DNA of 64,000 nt, from positions 128,001-192,000 of the forward strand of contig CBDBGZ010000004.1 in NCBI GenBank assembly GCA_965205425.1, written 5' to 3'. This document shows, piece after piece, positions 35,706 through 46,889 of this stretch. This stretch comes from Nitrosopumilus sp. (GTDB lineage Archaea > Thermoproteota > Nitrososphaeria > Nitrososphaerales > Nitrosopumilaceae). The stretch's first letter is position 1. Each line of letters begins with the position of its first letter. The position numbers were made by a program, and so were the translations under genes. The notes under the pieces were generated by a model. It ran no database searches and had not been told where the DNA came from. It saw only the letters and a program-made list of their open reading frames with translations.

Positions 35706-37024
35706 CAGTAGATAGGAAAGTGCTCAATTCGGATCAAAAAATAACGATCATTTTCTCAAATTATTCAGATAGAAAAAGCTTGATGAAAGTATGTCACTCC
35801 ATCAAATATGCATTGTACTTCATTTGATACCATGACACACCAAGGCGTGATACTATCTAAAGCATTTGAGATTATCACTAAAATAATGTACAATATCTTA
35901 TTGTTTCCATGCTCTAGTAAAAATAACTCACGGTTCCACAATGCAGACGCACATAATTCTATCATGTCATTGTGTTTGGGAAATTCATATTCTGAATCTG
36001 GATTAAAGAGACTGGCAATGGAATCAGATAATGCTTCTCCAACTGGTTTCATGGTTGAGAAAAATCATATCAAAAATATCACAAAAAACAATGCAAATTC
36101 AATTACATCGTTCACTGGATAGTACCATATCAAAATTACAAGAATTGGGAGTATTGGAACAACCAGTTACTGTAGCAATTGACAAACATCTAATCCCAAG
36201 ATATGACAAATTGCCAAACCATTCTTTAATAAAATCAAAATCTAAAAACAGTACTACTCATTTTGAGAGTTACTGCACCATGCAGTGCGTTGAAAAAAGA
36301 ATCAGGGCTCAATTAGGTTGTTATCCTTTGTATGACAACATATCAAATGCCGATTTTGTGCGTAAATTACTCTCTGATGGCATCAATAATGGAATCAAGA
36401 TTAAACTATTGCTAGTGGATAGGGAGTTTTTCACAGCTGGAACAATTTCAGAAATAAAACAAAGGAATTTAAAATTTCTAATGCCTGCAAAAAAGAATTC
36501 TCGAATCAAAGATGCAATTGTACAATACGTTAATGGAGATAGAAAGTCAATCTCGCCATACACAATAAAATCATCATCAGGACATGTAGAATCATTTAAT
36601 CTAGTTATTCTGCCAAACAAAAATGCAAGAAAAAAATCAGATATTATTGATCAGTATGTTGTGTTTGCAACAAACGTTTCACCAAAAGAAATATCATATA
36701 ACATACAAAACATTCCAACTGATTACAAGAAACGTTGGGGAATTGAAACAGGCTATGCATGTGTGGGAAGGTTCAGACCAAAAACCACCAGTTCAAACCA
36801 ATCCATAAGATTGTTGTATTTTTACTATTCATTGATTTTGTACAATGCATGGATAATTGCTAATTTGATTATCTCAGAAGAAACTAATGTAAAAAATTAC
36901 AAACCAATAATATCAATTGAAATTCTCAAATATTTCTTTGTAAAGATAATTATTCATTACTTTAGAAATAACAAAAATAATTATTTTCTAGAATGTGTAA
37001 TTTGATGTACTTTCCCATCTACTG
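35706..37024 (+). mobile_element. ISH3-family element copy 1, frameshifted transposase
   Basis: TIR CAGTAGAT(A/G)GGAAAGT; AID, DREF and YKKRWGIETGY motifs. Confidence 0.85.
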
Positions 37025-37208
37025 AATTAAAGATCGATCTTAAGATCGAAACATAATTTCTTATTGTTGTAAATTCAGATGTAAAATAGTGATTAGATCA
37101 CCAAAATGCACCAGCAGGGTCTAAAGTATAATTTCTATGGAAAATTATTCGTGTCCAAACCATACAATTTAAAAAAATGCAATTTGAAGAAGATCCATAT
37201 TTCATGAT

Positions 37209-37688: not shown

Positions 37689-37768
37689 AATCAGAAATGA
37701 TTTCAAAGCATCAAAGAGTGTTGATGGTTATTTGGGGTTGGGAAACAAAGTAATTATTTTGATAATAG

Positions 37769-37811
37769 AAAAAAGAGATTAGCGCGTTGGCCTAACCTAC
37801 CTAAGAACTAA
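37769..37811 (-). ncRNA. Putative antisense RNA to tRNA-like gene 1
   Basis: 16-nt complement of the anticodon arm, then a 7-bp stem (G-U on the minus strand) and a U6 tract. Confidence 0.55.
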
Positions 37812-37845
37812 CATTATTAGTTTAGTGTTTTTTAATATACTTTGT

Positions 37846-37916
37846 GGGCCTGTAGCGTGACGGTCACGTACCTACCTAAGAACTAGGAGATTTGGGTTCA
37901 ACTCCCAACAGATCCA
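37846..37916 (+). tRNA. Non-canonical tRNA-like gene 1: Ala-identity acceptor, anticodon AAG
   Basis: Cloverleaf GGGCCTG/CAGATCC-A, T-arm TTGGG-TTCAACT-CCCAA, loop CT-AAG-AA, C31:C39 mismatch. Confidence 0.75.
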
Positions 37917-37979
37917 CGACTTTTAATTATGATTTATGTCAGGTAATTACTTTCCCAAGTACTGATGTTATTAGAATAG

Positions 37980-38021
37980 AAAAAGAGATTAGCGCGCTGG
38001 CCTAACCTACGTGAAACCTAA
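37980..38021 (-). ncRNA. Putative antisense RNA to tRNA-like gene 2
   Basis: Same scaffold as copy 1; the 16-nt segment co-varies with tRNA 2. Confidence 0.55.
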
Positions 38022-38054
38022 CGTTATTAGTTCAGATTTTATAATAAACTTTGT

Positions 38055-38125
38055 GGGCCTGTAGCGTGACGGTCACGCACCTACGTGAAACCTAGGAGAT
38101 TTGGGTTCAACTCCCAACAGGTCCA
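38055..38125 (+). tRNA. Non-canonical tRNA-like gene 2: Ala-identity acceptor, anticodon GAA
   Basis: Cloverleaf GGGCCTG/CAGGTCC-A with G3:U70, loop GT-GAA-AC. Confidence 0.78.
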
Positions 38126-38133
38126 CACTATAA

Positions 38134-38612: not shown

Positions 38613-40109
38613 ATGATATCTGACAAGACAGTAATTTTTTGTGTCTTGATAATATCAATAGCAGTTGGTCTACAGCCTTTTGAGGATTTTTTTGACCAGT
38701 TAGCAGAAAATATTTTTTATAATTCTACAACTGATATTGGTTTGGAGTTTATTGCAAAACAAGACAATTTACGCAGTGAATTATTTGATAACATAAATAA
38801 TAATGATTATTTTTATGAAAAAATAAAACATACAGATGTATACAAAGCATTTATTGAGAAATACCCTCATTCAACTTTAACACTAAAGCATGCTGATAAT
38901 GATCTTTTAGAATTTGTTTTATACCATGTATACTCTAATGAACCACTTTCAGTTATTATGATAACCTTTGAGGTATCATTAGAGGAAGGTTTCATAAATA
39001 CTAGCTATGACTGCATCGGTGATAACAGTGCTAATATTTACTATAAAATGCCTACATTGTTTTGGATAAACTCTGATCGTTGTCTTCATACTATGAATAA
39101 TAAAATTACTTCATACCATAATGATATGCCAATATTTAATGATCATCATACAATGTTTTTCATCAATGATACTTTTGATGGTGATCTTGAGGGGTGGAAA
39201 TTTTGGTCAGGATTCCCAAAATATACCTTGGAAATAGATTCAAAAGCGGTACACCTTAGTGGAGATAATTTTGTAACCCATATAGGTTTGGAAAAAAATG
39301 TGAATGTATCTAACCTAACTAACAAAGAATTAATCTTATCATTTGATTATAGAGTAAAATCAGATACTTCAGATAGTACAGTCACCAATTCGAAACTCAT
39401 AATTTATGATTCAGATTACAATGAATTATTTAAAGAAAGTCTTGTATCAGGAGGAATAAAGGATACTGGTTGGCAAACATACCAAAAAAATATTTCAAAA
39501 TTCATCACAGGAGAAACACAAATCAAAATTGTTCTAAGTTTACAGGATAATTGGATATATAATCATAATCAACATGCTTGGTTCGATAATATTTACCTTA
39601 TACAAGATAATTCAAAAGAGATAATTTTTGATACGTTTGATGGTGATCTTGAGGGATGGTCTCTATGGACTGGTAAAATAGGTTATGAATTAATCCATGA
39701 TTCTCAAGCTGCAATGATTAGTGGAAATAGAGTATCATCTGTTAATGGCATACAAAAAACTGTAGATATCTCAGAATTAAAGAATAATTCTCTTACGTTA
39801 TCTTTTGATTATAGAGCAACTTCAAATTCTGCTAAAATTGATGTAACAAATGTTCTAGTTTCTATCTACGATGCAGAATCATACAAGCTGCTTTTTGAAC
39901 ATTATTTTATAAGTGGGGGAACAAAGGATACTGGTTGGCAAAAATATGAAAGAAATATTTATGAACATGTTAGGAACTCAGATAAAATTATTATCGCCTT
40001 ATCTAGTATAGATAATTCATCTGAAGATTCTAAACATAAGAACTGGTATGATAATATACAATTATCAGATAAAATTAGCATGGATCTAGATACTATCACA
40101 TATGAGTGA
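38613..40109 (+). CDS. Membrane-anchored/exported protein with two tandem ~150-aa beta-sandwich-like repeats
   Basis: Duplicated DTFDGDLEGW...LSFDYR...GG.KDTGWQ...W.DNI. Confidence 0.75.
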   Translation: MISDKTVIFCVLIISIAVGLQPFEDFFDQLAENIFYNSTTDIGLEFIAKQDNLRSELFDNINNNDYFYEKIKHTDVYKAFIEKYPHSTLTLKHADNDLLEFVLYHVYSNEPLSVIMITFEVSLEEGFINTSYDCIGDNSANIYYKMPTLFWINSDRCLHTMNNKITSYHNDMPIFNDHHTMFFINDTFDGDLEGWKFWSGFPKYTLEIDSKAVHLSGDNFVTHIGLEKNVNVSNLTNKELILSFDYRVKSDTSDSTVTNSKLIIYDSDYNELFKESLVSGGIKDTGWQTYQKNISKFITGETQIKIVLSLQDNWIYNHNQHAWFDNIYLIQDNSKEIIFDTFDGDLEGWSLWTGKIGYELIHDSQAAMISGNRVSSVNGIQKTVDISELKNNSLTLSFDYRATSNSAKIDVTNVLVSIYDAESYKLLFEHYFISGGTKDTGWQKYERNIYEHVRNSDKIIIALSSIDNSSEDSKHKNWYDNIQLSDKISMDLDTITYE

Positions 40110-41061: not shown

Positions 41062-41489
41062 TTATAAAAATCTAAACACAATTGGACAGTTAACTATTAT
41101 ACCTGTACTGCCAAACTCTCCACCATCAGGACCTGTAATCCATCCTTGCTCTACAAGGCCTAATATTTGGAATTCCTCAGTAACCCTAGAGTCATAGTGT
41201 TTTTCTAGTGCCTCATCCGTCCAAAATCCTAGATTAACATCCCAAAGCGGTGAGTAATCAGTAGCTATAGTTGGTATTCCACCTAACACGTTTAGTGGAG
41301 ATCTATGATCAACAATTGCTGAATTTAATCCCTGTCTTTGTGGATTTTTATCACCTGTTGGACCATTAGCCATTACAAAGATTCTCTCAACTGCCGAGAA
41401 TGCGGAATCATCACCACCTATTGGGATTTTTCCTAGAGACGGTGTTAGTGTTGCACCTTCAAGTGTTGCATCTAATGGATGATTGCTCT
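41062..41489 (-). pseudogene. 3' part of the gene starting at 34947
   Basis: Begins with the reverse complement of the AGAGC TSD; continues NHPLDATLEG...NCPIVFRFL*. Confidence 0.85.
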
Positions 41490-42809
41490 CAGTAGATGGG
41501 AAAGTAACTCAAGTTACACATTCTAGAAAATAATTATTTTTGTTATTTCTAAAGTAATGAATAATTATCTTTACAAAGAAATATTTGAGAATTTCAATTG
41601 ATATTATTGGTTTGTGATTTTGTACATTAGTTTCTTCTGAGATAATCAAATTAGCAATTATCCATGCATTGTACAAAATCAAGGAATAGTAAAAATACAA
41701 CAATCTTATGGATTGGTTTGAACTGGTGGTTTTTGGTCTGAACCTTCCCACACATGCATAACCTGTTTCAATCCCCCAACGTTTCTTGTAATCAGTTGGA
41801 ATGTCCTGTATATTTTCAGATATTTCTTTTGGTGAAACGTTTGTTGCAAACACAGCATACTGATCAATAATATCTGATTTTTTTCTTGCATTTTTGTTTG
41901 GTAGAATAACTAGATTAAATGATTCTACATGTCCTGATGATGATTTTATTGTGTATGGCGAGATTGACTTTCTATCTCCATTAACGTATTGTAAAATGGC
42001 ATCTTTGATTCGAGAATTCTTTTTTGCAGGCATTAGAAATTTTAAATTCCTTTGTTTTATTTCTGAAATTGTTCCAGCTGTGAAAAACTCCCTATCCACT
42101 AGCAATAGTTTAATCTTGATTCCATTATTGATGCCATCAGAGAGTAATTTACGCACAAAATCGGCATTTGATATGTTGTCATACAAAGGATAACAACCTA
42201 ATTGAGCCCTGATTCTTTTTTCAACGCACTGCATGGTGCAGTAACTCTCAAAATGAGTAGTACTGTTTTTAGATTTTGATTTTATTAAAGAATGATTTGG
42301 CAATTTGTCATATCTTGGGATTAGATGTTTGTCAATTGCTACAGTAACTGGTTGTTCCAATACTCCCAATTCTTGTAATTTTGATATGGTACTATCCAGT
42401 GAACGATGTAATTGAATTTGCATTGTTTTTTGTGATATTTTTGATATGATTTTTCTCAACCATGAAACCAGTTGGAGAAGCATTATCTGATTCCATTGCC
42501 AGTCTCTTTAATCCAGATTCAGAATATGAATTTCCCAAACACAATGACATGATAGAATTATGTGCGTCTGCATTGTGGAACCGTGAGTTATTTTTACTAG
42601 AGCATGGAAACAATAAGATATTGTACATTATTTTAGTGATAATCTCAAATGCTTTAGATAGTATCACGCCTTGGTGTGTCATGGTATCAAATGAAGTACA
42701 ATGCATATTTGATGGAGTGACATACTTTCATCAAGCTTTTTCTATCTGAATAGATTGATTGAATAATTGATAGTTTTTGATCTAAATTGAGTTACTTTCC
42801 CATCTACTG
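41490..42809 (-). mobile_element. ISH3-family element copy 2 (inverted)
   Basis: 23-bp perfect TIR CAGTAGATGGGAAAGTAACTCAA; same frameshift as copy 1. Confidence 0.85.
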
Positions 42810-43009: not shown

Positions 43010-45860
43010 TTACTCTGATATGTTATCCTCATAGATTCTCTTTAGTTTGGAGCTACATGTAGGACACTGTTGCTTGCTATGAATCGTACTGCATTGGGCA
43101 CAGCAAAACTCTGTAGAATTAGAATTTTGATTCAGTCTTGCTATCTGCTCTTGCAGTTCAGCAATCTTTTTCTTGTTTTCTTCAGCATCTTGCTGTTGTT
43201 GTTTGAGAAATGATTCATGTCTCGTAAGTATGGAATCTTTATTTTGATCTGCAATTTCTTTTGCTTTGAGTTTTGCCAAGGCATCATTGAGTTCAATCTT
43301 TAAAGAATCTGAATCATCATTTCCTGATACAACGTTTGAGAATTTTGTAAATATGTGAGACATGGGCATAACTAATTCTAATTTTTGAGTCAATTCTCAA
43401 ATTATTCAAATAGAAAAAGCTAAGGATCTTATCATGTTTTGTTCATTGTAATGTCAAAACAAATGAAAATCCCTAACAAGATTCTATCGGAATCATTTCT
43501 TATTGGTATTTTGTATTTGGTGGGAATGTTGTCTTTGTATGAAGAGATACTGAAACCTGGTAGACCGTACGTATACTCTACAATTCTAATGGTACAGCTG
43601 TCCATCATAAAATCTTGGATGAGAATTCCTAGTAACAATACATTACATTATTTCCTTTCAATCAAACCTTCCAATGACAAACTGCTCAAGGTTTGCAAAT
43701 TAACTCAAATTCCAGACAGAAGAACTATTGACAGACGATTTCAATTTCTACCAATTAGTGACATGATTAGTACCATGGGCAACAAATTCATCTCAGAGGG
43801 ATTGGTGGAAAATGTTTCAGCATCAGGGGATAGTTCAATGCTAAAAGCAGATGGTCCAGTATGGCACAAATCAGACATAAGGAACAATCGTCTACCAATC
43901 CCAGGAATTGATACTGATGCAAAATGGGGTTTTTCAAAATCAAAGGGTTGGATATTTGGATACAAACTGCACATGAGTTGCAGTACTGGAAAACTGATAG
44001 TTCCATTGTCTGCTGATGTCTCAACTGCAAATGTTTCTGATGGTAAAATGTATGAAACGTTAGTCAAACCACTTGCAGGACTGGTTGAAAATATTTTATG
44101 TGATGTGCCATATGATGATAAATCATTATATCAGTTTAGTGATGAGAGACATTTGAGATTGATTTGTTCTATCAAAATATATCCATCAACACCGCCAGAG
44201 CGAATCAAACTTGCAGATTTTTATAATTCTGTACAAGGTCAAGAGTTGTACTCACAAAGAAAAGTCTCAATTGAACCTTTATTTGAAATATTCAAAGATA
44301 CGTTCAACATTAGAACTGTACATGTGAAAGGATTTGACAACGTGAAATCATTTGTATTGGTTTGTGTGTTGGTGTATCAACTTGTAGTATATTACAACTG
44401 TATAATTGGAGCAGAAAATCCAAGAACTGTAAAGAGAATGCTTTGCTGTTAGGAAATGACTGAGAGTTATTTTTGTAAATAATTATGCCCAAGTCTCAAA
44501 TATGTTTAGTCGCTTGGAAGCTTTAGCATATTCCGTTCTTATGCTGTCTGGGAATAATTTTGCTTGTTTTTTGTAAGAGTTTTTTGGTTTGTGTCCCACC
44601 ACTTCTTCTACTACATCTTCACGGCAATTACAATCAGTTAAAACAGATACCAATACATCACGAATCTCATGTGAATCCATATTGTAGATATTTTTTTCGT
44701 TGGCAGTCTTACCGATTATTTTTAATATTCCTGCTCTTGTGGCAATTCTATGAAAAGCATGACTTATCCACCAATCAGTAATTGGTTTTCCAAATTTGTT
44801 TAAAAATATTGGTTCTCCAATTTGTATATCTTGTTTTGTCTGCTTTTTTCTGAAATCAAGATACCTCTGTAATTCATAAACTGCATCTCTATCAAGACAT
44901 CCAATATGGTTGTAATCTACTTTGATTCTTACAAGGGTGATTGGTACAGGGCATTTATTGAGATCCCATGAATTGTAATTTTCAGAACCAAAATATTTGA
45001 CTAGTTGTTCCAATGCTTCAAAATTGAATCTATCGGCCAATGTTGCTCGGTCCAATCCCCTATGAAATTTACATAAAAATAACGCTTTTTCCATTATTGA
45101 GGGTTTACCGACAGTCAAAAATTTCATCAAATCAGATAATGTCATACTTTGTTCTTCTATGGTATTGTTGTTTGTGATTGTCGGATCATATTGAAAATTA
45201 ATCTCTTGTTCATTTTTTTCAAAATATGATACTATTGCAGATTTGATCAACGTTAATGAACTTGCTTTAAAATTTGAATGTTTTTCATCAAGAAGATATT
45301 GTTTTATGATTCGTATGATTGTCTTTTTTTCTATGAATGGTCCTTCTAAAATGTTTAAAATTTCCTCCACATTTTGAAATTGTCTATATTCAGTTTTTTG
45401 CGTGAATGCACTTTCATCAATACGATGCAGAGTTTGAATTTTGAATCTCCTTTCATTATTTTCAATGTCTGGTGATGTAAGCCATTTGTTAAAATTCCAT
45501 AATTGACGTAAATATGCTTTTTTGGTACTATTTTGTGCTGTTTTGGCATTTTTTTGTCTATTTCCCCTTAATTGAGATTGCCAGTATTGAATTGATTTTA
45601 TCTGTATAAACCATGTAGGAATATGTGTATCATCAATTCTTTCAACCATATTGTTGTCTTTGGCAAATTTCATCATTTTTTGACTTTTCAGCAATGCACT
45701 TTCTTTTTTATTATTACATATTTTTAAAAGGATTTTTTTATTTTTCTCAAATAATGAATTTGCTGTAACTGTTTCGCCAATTTTCGGGAAACATATTTTT
45801 TCAAATGTCATTGGAAATTCTTGATTATCTGTAATAACTGTATAGAGGTATGACTGTTTC
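43010..45860 (-). pseudogene. Tyrosine recombinase/integrase (~550 aa) with C-terminal coiled coil and Zn ribbon, IS-interrupted
   Basis: HEIRD, GHK and Y catalytic pattern; frame RLNIF-TKFSNV restored after IS removal. Confidence 0.8.
43357..44497 (+). mobile_element. DDE IS element (IS5/IS982-like), transposase 43439-44452
   Basis: TIR GAGAC(A/T)TGGGCATAA; 8-bp TSD AAATATGT; GYKLH motif. Confidence 0.85.
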
Positions 45861-46889
45861 TGTTGTATCCCAAAATCAGTTCGTCCCTTATTTGACATCG
45901 TATTCTTCTCCTGTCTGCTCATCAATAACTCTTGTTCCTTTCTCTGGCATCTTTCTTGCATATGCCTTTGCAGGGGTCTCAAGATTATCCCAGTCAAGTG
46001 ACATGTGTGGCTTTATGTGATTGTACCAGTGGACCAGCTCATCAATGGTGCCAAACCATTTCTGCTTTCTCTGAATCTCGCCGTGAAATCTTTCGAGCTT
46101 GCCATTGGTTTGAGGATGGTTCACTCTTGCCATGATATGCTTTATCTCTAATTTTACCAGTTCTTGCTCAAACTGGGATGCTCCTTTTCTCTTGTATTCT
46201 GATTGGTTTGCATAAAACTGGGAGCCATGATCAGTTAGAATTGATGCAGGCCTACCGTGCTTTGCAATTGCCTCATGTAATACTACAAGTGCGTTATCTG
46301 TTGTTGCCTCTGCAAACACTCCATGAGAAACGATAAACCTTGATGCGTCATCCTGGTAGCATAAGAACCATCTGCCATCATCTAGCTTCTTCCAGTCAGT
46401 ATGCCACATGGAGTTTGAATATGTCCTCTCGTATCTAACCCACTTTCGTCTTCTCCTCTTCTTTGGCTGAGCTTCTGCCAACCCTTCATCTCTCATAATT
46501 TTGTGTATGGTATTGTGAGGTATGTGTGTTCCAGTAGTATCAATTATTTTCTCCAAGAATACTGCAGAACACCTGAACTTTTCAAATGCTGACTGGACAG
46601 TCTGTACCATCTGCTCTGTGATTATTCCCTTTGGCCTTCCAGGCTTGCCTAGAATCGGAACTGCACCAGTACGGCTATACCGTGAGTAGAGTTTCTGCAC
46701 CCACCGAACAGATATCTTCATGGATGAGGCTACGTCTGCGTTCTTGGCACCATCCTCTTTTGACTTGATTATCCAGGATATCTGGATTGGATCTAATTTT
46801 TGCATAATCTTGTGATTCTTTCCTCTTTTCCAAACGTATCTTGACTTTAGTCTGGAAATAATGGGGTGAACTAATTTGAGGATAATAGA
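45861..46889 (-). mobile_element. IS481-family element, type B copy 2
   Basis: 15-bp TSD AGGTATGACTGTTTC; transposase 45888-46805. Confidence 0.9.

Follow-up and report, generated by a model that had tools for sequence, protein, structure and literature searches.

In a 64,000-nucleotide stretch of a Nitrosopumilus sp. genome (hereafter the window, G000:C4:128001-192000, where G000 denotes the stretch's own genome of 2.2 Mb and 33% GC), each of two tandem units consists of a transfer RNA (tRNA) gene and an upstream copy of its anticodon arm, which on the opposite strand forms the beginning of a predicted small RNA (sRNA) gene. The tRNAs join an alanine-type acceptor stem to anticodons of other amino acids, and in related units the sRNA guide and the anticodon arm change together. 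The explanation that we prefer, with a probability of roughly 0.4, is that a mis-decoding alanine tRNA would be neutralised by its cognate anti-anticodon sRNA, the two forming an RNA-only toxin-antitoxin-like pair. More tentatively still, the units may represent a natural archaeal family of RNA-only toxin-antitoxin systems, in which an alanine-accepting tRNA would misread Phe, Leu or Asp codons next to an sRNA of ~43 nt, specificity would drift via G·U pairs, and orthogonal pairs would move or recombine as units of ~180 bp.

The two units of the window

In both units, a 16-mer of the anticodon arm (tRNA positions 26-41) is duplicated upstream of the tRNA gene. The parts of the units are as follows.

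37769..37811, minus strand: predicted sRNA gene of unit 1, ~43 nt (guide 37811-37795, hairpin 37798-37776, U-tract 37774-37769)
37795..37810, plus strand: upstream 16-mer of unit 1, ACCTACCTAAGAACTA, equal to tRNA positions 26-41; its complement is the sRNA guide
37813..37820, plus strand: TATA-like ATTATTAG of unit 1, at -33 to -26 of tRNA G1; candidate tRNA promoter
37832..37839, minus strand: TATA-like TATATTAA of unit 1, starting 28 nt ahead of the first guide nucleotide; putative sRNA promoter
37846..37916, plus strand: tRNA of unit 1, class I, anticodon AAG, G3·U70, A73, mismatches C4·A69 and C31·C39 (ARAGORN; Rfam 46.8 bits)
37870..37885, plus strand: arm 16-mer of unit 1 (tRNA positions 26-41), the guide target
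37980..38021, minus strand: predicted sRNA gene of unit 2, ~42 nt (guide 38021-38005, hairpin 38008-37986, U-tract 37984-37980)
38005..38020, plus strand: upstream 16-mer of unit 2, ACCTACGTGAAACCTA, equal to positions 26-41 of the unit 2 tRNA
38024..38030, plus strand: TATA-like TTATTAG of unit 2, at -31 to -25 of tRNA G1
38041..38048, minus strand: TATA-like TTTATTAT of unit 2, starting 27 nt ahead of the first guide nucleotide
38055..38125, plus strand: tRNA of unit 2, class I, anticodon GAA, G3·U70, A73, C31·C39 mismatch (ARAGORN; Rfam 49.2 bits)
38079..38094, plus strand: arm 16-mer of unit 2 (tRNA positions 26-41), the guide target

A preliminary description of the window had already reported the 16-mer pairs at 37795/37870 and 38005/38079, and both their coordinates and their sequences proved correct. 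It placed the end of the upstream copies 34-35 bp before G1, and we measure 35 nt in unit 1 and 34 nt in unit 2; the four loop differences that it noted between the units do occur in both copies, four out of four. The units are tandem and, outside the spacer and anticodon loop, nearly identical, as it stated, but their size was underestimated at ~153 bp: the period is 209-210 bp, and the conserved unit is ~180 bp long. Both tRNAs are 71 nt long, fold into full ARAGORN cloverleaves and score above the gathering threshold of Rfam RF00005 (29 bits).

On the minus strand, the upstream copy runs into the hairpin AGGUUAG/CUAAUCU, which has a G·U pair on this strand and an A·C mismatch on the plus strand, with T6 (unit 1) or T5 (unit 2) behind it, exactly as first described. 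The predicted sRNA of unit 1 folds into a free 5' end followed by the hairpin (-9.6 kcal/mol), and that of unit 2 leaves 13 nt free at the 5' end before its hairpin (-7.7 kcal/mol).

The AT-rich spacer had been suggested to contain divergent TATA boxes, and TATA-like motifs were indeed located on both strands in both units. The position of the tRNA promoter candidate of unit 1 fits the 46 other tRNA genes of the genome, in which the AT-rich peak lies at -30 to -26 and the commonest TATA-like start at -35 to -26 (24/46), and the (T)TATTA motif is retained in the remaining units. The distance from the TATA-like 8-mer of the sRNA to the first guide nucleotide is 27-31 nt, both in units built like those of the window (upstream-type) and in units with the sRNA gene downstream of the tRNA (downstream-type, see below). 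This is the TATA-to-+1 spacing of ordinary tRNA genes, and hence the identity between the copies ends at the predicted sRNA start.

Co-variation of guide and anticodon arm

Fourteen upstream-type units have an arm that can be compared with the guide, and they give 12 distinct pairs; not counted were L050, whose neighbouring tRNA belongs to the downstream type, and those units in which the tRNA is truncated (L025, L029, L046 and, later, L061). In the 12 pairs, 185/192 positions are identical, and 201/204 are pairable over 17 columns if G·U is allowed. In 10,000 trials with shuffled partners, the number of identical positions averaged 146.5, peaked at 169 and never reached the observed value, although this test overstates independence, since the units are kin. 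Nine arm positions vary, each tracked by the upstream copy. The preliminary description had left it to a wider comparison whether the upstream segment follows the loop in further members, and guide and arm do co-vary across the 12 distinct pairs. Position 42 forms U·G in 10/12 pairs, which lengthens the duplex to 17 bp. The mean predicted duplex energy is -24.7 kcal/mol for cognate vs -13.0 kcal/mol for non-cognate combinations, and the orthogonal specificities proposed earlier are thus borne out at the sequence level.

The exceptions are informative as to the strand. Of the seven non-identical cells in the upstream-type pairs, five are G·U on the predicted sRNA strand, being C/T or A/G changes in the direction that suits this strand, and two are mismatches (L038 at position 32 and L040 at position 26, the duplex end). 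The internal non-Watson-Crick positions of seven downstream-type duplexes are likewise all G·U. The G000 C2 cassette and L050 have the same tRNA and guides that differ by a single A-to-G change, which turns A-U into G·U, and L119 and L106 show one extra G·U each. As this compatibility exists on one strand only, RNA-RNA pairing is favoured over DNA repeats, and we consider it highly probable that the sRNA guide pairs functionally with the tRNA anticodon arm. To this extent the original idea that an antisense RNA masks the anticodon of its own tRNA has partly held up: a cognate minus-strand sRNA gene is predicted, guide and arm co-vary in the 12 pairs, and other placements and scaffolds repeat the design; the masking itself is a prediction.

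L050 was considered as a counter-example, its upstream guide being unlike the adjacent tRNA, and was rejected as such because that tRNA has its own downstream cognate sRNA. On this metagenome contig (minus strand, ~2400-2600), a complete downstream-type cassette comprising an Asp-type tRNA and a cognate sRNA lies inside an upstream-type tRNA gene, flanked by an upstream-type sRNA gene on one side and the 3' half of the tRNA on the other. Hence, cassettes nest in or recombine with each other.

Family members and distribution

A third upstream-type unit in the same genome (C9:454052-454222) differs from unit 1 at arm positions 31 and 32, in both copies. The idea of a mobile insertion that this copy had suggested was dropped, as its flanks turned out to be separate multi-copy insertion sequences (IS). 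ARAGORN finds 53 tRNAs in the genome, only seven of which have a copy or complement of their arm within 250 nt; six of these share at least 11 exact letters with it, and the seventh pairs at 15/16 positions with G·U allowed. For the remaining 46, no more than 10 letters are shared with the flanks, so the match is not due to chance. A cognate partner thus accompanies 7/7 tRNAs of the odd alanine-stem kind and 0/46 of the others. As archaeal markers, the genome encodes the PurP domains DUF1297 and DUF1246 and an archaeal-type ProRS.

Four of the seven are downstream-type cassettes:

G000:C9:254430-254590: downstream-type cassette
G000:C9:711180-711332, minus strand: downstream-type cassette
G000:C8:191583-191753, minus strand: downstream-type cassette
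G000:C2:54841-54987, minus strand: downstream-type cassette

Their tRNAs all have G3·U70, with the anticodon GTC in three and GAA in one. In this type, the reverse complement of the arm is found ~35-55 nt downstream of the tRNA on the same strand, and the order is tRNA, TTTAATTAG-like box, cognate guide, hairpin UUAGUUC/GAACUAG and T6-7. The duplexes are 12-16 bp long without internal mismatch.

In a second genome (G331), an unbiased survey took in every one of the 58 Rfam tRNA hits together with 300-nt flanks and identified nine odd alanine-stem tRNAs, eight of which have a cognate partner. It also revealed two new hairpin scaffolds, AGGCUA/UAGCCU and GUAACUC/GAGUUAC, and a convergent downstream sRNA beside a low-scoring tRNA-like sequence. 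Besides the window type there are therefore three placements: the sRNA gene can follow the tRNA on the same strand, follow it in convergent orientation, or precede it with a scaffold other than that of the window. Whichever the placement, the hairpin and T-tract lie on the strand that is complementary to the tRNA.

The distribution within the genus is patchy. BLAST found the upstream-type unit in three of 201 genomes of the taxonomic family, all of the same genus, and in 0/185 genomes from 26 other genera. The exact upstream-type scaffold pattern occurs in 8/151 genus genomes, the downstream-type scaffold in 4/151 (and in 0/185 genomes of other genera), and either of them in 9/151. The upstream pattern also matched nine archaeal loci in a species-representative collection and five metagenome contigs; six matches in Streptococcus and Bacteroidota were discarded as chance, there being no tRNA at those places.

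These arrangements bear on an explanation at the DNA level, in which the repeats would serve for attachment (att) or recombination, or act as templates for gene conversion or a switch of anticodon; recombination and anticodon switching are the alternatives that the preliminary description had offered. Mobile elements of this phylum do integrate into tRNA genes via short att sites with a median length of 17 bp (so an excerpt of PMC6563490), a 38-bp duplication surrounds a 35-bp insert in the tRNA at L027, and at L050 one cassette is located inside another tRNA gene. However, the two 16-mer copies of a window unit are separated by just 59 bp, unlike tRNA-integrase att sites. Furthermore, a scan of the 2.2-Mb genome for ACCTACCTAAGAACTA and ACCTACGTGAAACCTA with up to two mismatches hits nothing outside such units; a third copy is lacking, which speaks against att sites of a large element. 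The repeats are direct in some architectures and inverted or convergent in others, yet the RNA with the hairpin and T-tract is always antisense, the copies differ in ways that allow G·U on just one strand, and the fixed identity boundaries coincide with the predicted sRNA 5' end. We therefore regard a DNA-level role as very improbable.

Several further sequences of the family are worth recording. The segment 37918..37946 of the window (plus strand), GACTTTTAATTATGATTTATGTCAGGTAA, is what is left of a truncated promoter region that belonged to a downstream-type sRNA gene; loci L070 and L074 of G177 have the same sequence with the complete downstream-type sRNA still following it. The 5' end of the unit 1 sRNA (window 37811-37805) matches the downstream-type hairpin arms UUAGUUC/GAACUAG (e.g. 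G000:C9:254552-254576), which also correspond to loop and 3'-stem letters of the unit 1 tRNA, so that this hairpin resembles a fused guide-target pair. L144 (G331:C1:491404-492087), an 85-nt 'Gly ACC' tRNA-like sequence without G3·U70, may be a further kind of member: a downstream same-strand segment behind a TTTTAATTATAA box pairs with its arm at 13.5/15 positions, and the G000 copy (C9:1042184-1042268) shows complementarity at background level only. Finally, class II tRNA-like sequences (CGTCAGG...CCTGACG), 89-93 nt in length and having a GAA loop and a long extra arm, occur at G000:C8:120792-120883 (minus), C9:254931-255020 (minus), C9:901280-901368, L083, L126, L127 and L132. A search of their flanks found no complementary partner. 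They score up to 56.9 bits with Rfam and may be intron-bearing tRNAs miscalled by ARAGORN.

Architecture of the predicted sRNA

The layout of guide, hairpin and T-tract is constant across the scaffolds AGGUUAG/CUAAUCU, AGGCUA/UAGCCU, UUAGUUC/GAACUAG and GUAACUC/GAGUUAC, and the sRNA design is conserved across 17 aligned units. RNAalifold gave a weak consensus for these 17 sRNA regions (-1.95 kcal/mol, no compensatory pair) because divergent hairpins misalign; the support for the hairpin comes from single folds.

A 5' guide followed by a 3' hairpin handle and a U-tail resembles a guide RNA, and the guide covers the loop exactly. The sRNA might then act much as a box C/D RNA does, though with a different handle: it would bring to the anticodon loop a protein, encoded at another locus, that modifies, edits or cleaves the tRNA there or carries out a splinted repair. 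Archaeal box C/D sRNAs, which carry a C box (RUGAUGA) and a D box (CUGA), guide tRNA methylation and are likewise short RNAs with a guide of at least 10 nt complementary to a tRNA. However, the C box (RUGAUGA) is present in 0/23 sRNA regions, Rfam searches at gathering thresholds and also at E<=1 return only tRNA matches within the units, so that neither a C/D family nor any other matches the sRNA, and here the guide spans the loop and both stem strands. Moreover, the protein would have to recognise no fewer than four unrelated hairpins, and no protein gene is common to at least three of the 17 upstream-type loci. The cassette hence appears self-contained, and we find the enzyme-guide explanation distinctly unlikely.

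Identity of the tRNAs

Acceptor stems were compared in 21 distinct intact tRNAs and five more from G331. The pairs 1:72 G-C, 2:71 G-C and 3:70 G·U are present in 26/26 and A73 in 25/26 (20/21 plus 5/5), the exception having G73. Among the 21, 4:69 is C-G in 19, and the next two pairs vary with compensation, 5:68 through five pair types and 6:67 through seven. G1-C72, G2-C71, G3·U70 and A73 constitute the identity set of alanyl-tRNA synthetase (AlaRS), which ignores the anticodon. The tRNA-Ala genes of the host (GGGCCGG...CCGGTCCA) have the same acceptor stem as the odd tRNAs.

The anticodons are AAG, GAG and TAG (Leu), GAA (Phe) and GTC (Asp), and never the alanine NGC. The window tRNAs are of class I with a variable region of 4 nt, and the odd tRNAs with a 'Leu' anticodon are not leucine tRNAs, because the long variable arm is absent; canonical genes for tRNA-Phe, tRNA-Asp and tRNA-Leu(GAG) are present elsewhere in the genome. 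As AlaRS does not read the anticodon, charging with alanine may still occur, and the odd tRNAs would then carry alanine to Phe, Leu or Asp codons.

Decaying relics devoid of present function would suit the IS-rich surroundings and the truncation of several members. Against them stand compensatory changes in acceptor stems with an invariant G3·U70, co-variation of guide and arm across at least 12 variants, and a conserved promoter spacing, and this interpretation is hardly credible.

Loss of tRNAs and persistence of sRNA genes

We counted 31 sRNA genes, 20 of the upstream type and 11 of the downstream type. No intact cognate tRNA accompanies 10 of them: the tRNA is truncated by insertions at L025, L029, L046, L061 and L071, interrupted at L027, replaced at L050, and absent or non-cognate at L076, L070 and L074. 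That sRNA genes outlast their tRNAs is what one would expect of a pair in which the tRNA does the harm. At L027 (G177:C1:541118-541361), the interruption follows position 43, and the duplicated 38 bp are positions 6-43; this may be an integration footprint.

The same numbers weigh against a reversal of roles, in which the sRNA would act on some other cellular target and the tRNA would be its sponge or antidote. The pairing itself is silent on direction, and tRNA-precursor-derived sponges for sRNAs are known in bacteria. However, in 10/31 cases the sRNA gene survives although no intact cognate tRNA is left, the window guides have no second site in their own genome at up to two mismatches, and the conservation of G3·U70 would be left without a reason. 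Such a reversal is quite improbable.

Another alternative is a regulatory switch. The alanine-charged tRNA would be used on purpose by the host or a mobile element, for example for conditional mistranslation or as a non-translational alanine donor, and the sRNA would be its off-switch, with neither addiction nor killing. The pairing evidence would be the same as for a toxin-antitoxin pair, the acceptor stem is strongly conserved, and natural families of mistranslating tRNAs exist in bacteria (excerpt of PMC10404621). What makes a switch unlikely is the patchy spread noted above (9/151 genus genomes), the variable copy number and context in IS-rich loci, and the many disrupted tRNAs whose sRNA gene survives; in addition, a non-translational donor would not need varied anticodons tracked by a guide.

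Proposed mechanism

In the toxin-antitoxin-like reading that we prefer, the cassette would comprise two RNA genes, one for a class I tRNA with an alanine stem and one for the ~43-nt sRNA with its own TATA-like box. The sRNA would consist of a guide of 12-17 nt complementary to positions 26-42 of the tRNA of the same cassette, a hairpin and a U-tract. Its free 5' end would nucleate on the anticodon loop and then invade the anticodon stem, often a weak one given the 31·39 mismatch of many members, to form a duplex of 12-17 bp. This duplex would block decoding by the tRNA and may mark it for decay. If the sRNA were missing, AlaRS would charge the tRNA, and Phe, Leu or Asp codons would receive alanine. 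Provided that the tRNA is stable and the sRNA labile, the cassette could behave as a selfish addiction element or serve defence, the sequence of the anticodon arm being its specificity code.

A number of points weigh against this proposal. Transcription of the sRNA and tRNA is predicted from the DNA, a difference in their stability is assumed, and a link with plasmid or virus maintenance would be an assumption too; viral contigs contain 0 matches to either scaffold pattern. Alanylation is predicted solely from textbook AlaRS identity rules. The tRNAs show C31·C39 or A31·C39 mismatches, C33 in some cases, an unmodifiable A34 and modest Rfam scores (44-55 bits), and hence may be poor decoders and not very toxic. 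Four guide nucleotides are locked in the sRNA's own hairpin, and full pairing requires the anticodon stem to be opened. The surplus of sRNA genes is partly a matter of ascertainment, since most loci were found by sRNA-scaffold patterns. Two intact tRNAs, and only two, have no partner: L114, with no cognate sRNA within 300 nt, and L080, where an insertion 7 bp upstream has removed the promoter region as well. Finally, with insertion sequences all around them, the cassettes could be in decay.

If real, this would be the first gene family whose sole evident job is to provide an antisense RNA against the anticodon arm of one tRNA, and the first natural archaeal set of tRNAs that joins an alanine-type acceptor stem to non-alanine anticodons. 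It would add tRNAs to the toxins or regulated effectors of small selfish cassettes, show how a specificity code co-evolves between two separately encoded RNAs, and account for the surplus "Leu/Phe/Asp" tRNA calls in these genomes. Such pairs would also be ready-made orthogonal tRNA/anti-tRNA switches for the control of decoding.

Comparison with known systems

Among the papers that it returned, our literature search found no description of a tRNA paired with an anti-anticodon sRNA. Type VIII toxin-antitoxin systems (CreTA, SdsR/RyeA) are among the closest known, being small addiction-like cassettes with two RNA partners encoded side by side; the predicted gene structure of the present cassettes would fit this pattern. 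The CreT toxins of haloarchaeal CreTA act on translation by sequestering a rare tRNA (excerpt of PMC8501985), whereas here the presumed toxin would itself be a tRNA. The CreTA antitoxin works through Cascade-guided promoter repression, in contrast to the direct base pairing with the toxin RNA proposed here, and the gene of our antisense RNA adjoins that of its target instead of lying on the opposite strand of it.

In type I systems, an antisense RNA targets the mRNA of a small membrane-protein toxin. The present cassettes share with them a short, presumably labile antisense RNA set against the stable product of a neighbouring gene, and orthogonal specificities. However, the target is a tRNA, and no open reading frame (ORF) is conserved: those overlapping the units are incidental (32-58 aa), none recurs at three or more loci, and a conserved gene for a small hydrophobic toxin was not seen among them. 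Type III (ToxIN-like) systems have an endoribonuclease toxin gene adjoining repeated RNA antitoxin units, whereas the upstream-type loci have no conserved protein neighbour.

Mistranslating tRNAs, such as the bacterial tRNAProX family and engineered tRNA-Ala and tRNA-Ser anticodon variants, are often toxic (excerpts of PMC10404621, PMC6125640 and PMC6827378), and like the tRNAs described here they uncouple acceptor identity from the anticodon. The present ones are archaeal, combine the alanine set with Leu, Phe or Asp anticodons, and come with a dedicated gene for a cognate antisense sRNA.

The RNA I/II pair of ColE1 and CopA/CopT of R1 are loop-loop kissing antisense RNAs encoded opposite their targets, so that their co-variation is automatic. 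The likeness consists in fast pairing from an anticodon-like loop and in loop changes that create new specificity groups; here, however, two distinct stretches of DNA encode guide and target and have to co-evolve. The T-box riboswitch, a cis-acting mRNA leader that pairs with three anticodon nucleotides and the tRNA 3' end, also reads a specific tRNA through its anticodon, whereas the predicted sRNA is free-standing and would pair with 12-17 nt.

Neighbouring genes

The region is crowded with insertion sequences, and IS copies of several types number in the dozens across the genome. Two inverted copies of a 1303-bp IS with a DDE_Tnp_1 transposase (window 35723-37025 and 41489-42791, 98% identical) bracket both units and a 498-aa ORF in the fashion of a composite transposon. 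This ORF (window 38613-40109) lies directly downstream of the units and contains internal repeats at 39429-39495 and 39894-39960; searches of Pfam, NCBIfam and PHROG gave no family for it, and the other units lack it as a neighbour. Further along, a 504-aa ORF (window 44483-45997, minus strand) shows a weak match to Phage_integrase, a tyrosine recombinase family, which at E=1.3e-4 is below the cut-off.

A divergent ORF of 53-64 aa (MPKWKK..VSV..PKP) from a rare family (eight hits) is located 77-80 nt upstream of 4/6 downstream-type tRNAs:

L077:1138-1296, minus strand: divergent ORF
L073:1752-1943: divergent ORF
L075:1138-1296, minus strand: divergent ORF
L072:1724-1888: divergent ORF

It has no Pfam family and no sequence match in the PDB. 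An AbrB/SpoVT-like fold, considered as a guess, was unsupported by the fold search: the AF2 model has a pLDDT of 70, and Foldseek returned nothing below E=0.5. Direct repeats ATATTCTACCTAATA lie between this ORF and the tRNA at two of the four loci.

In G177, a 563-aa ORF with a weak TraG-D_C match (L030:8713-10404, minus strand, and L032:7036-7953) ends directly upstream of an upstream-type unit. One of its two copies is truncated, and the ORF hints at a mobile-element context.

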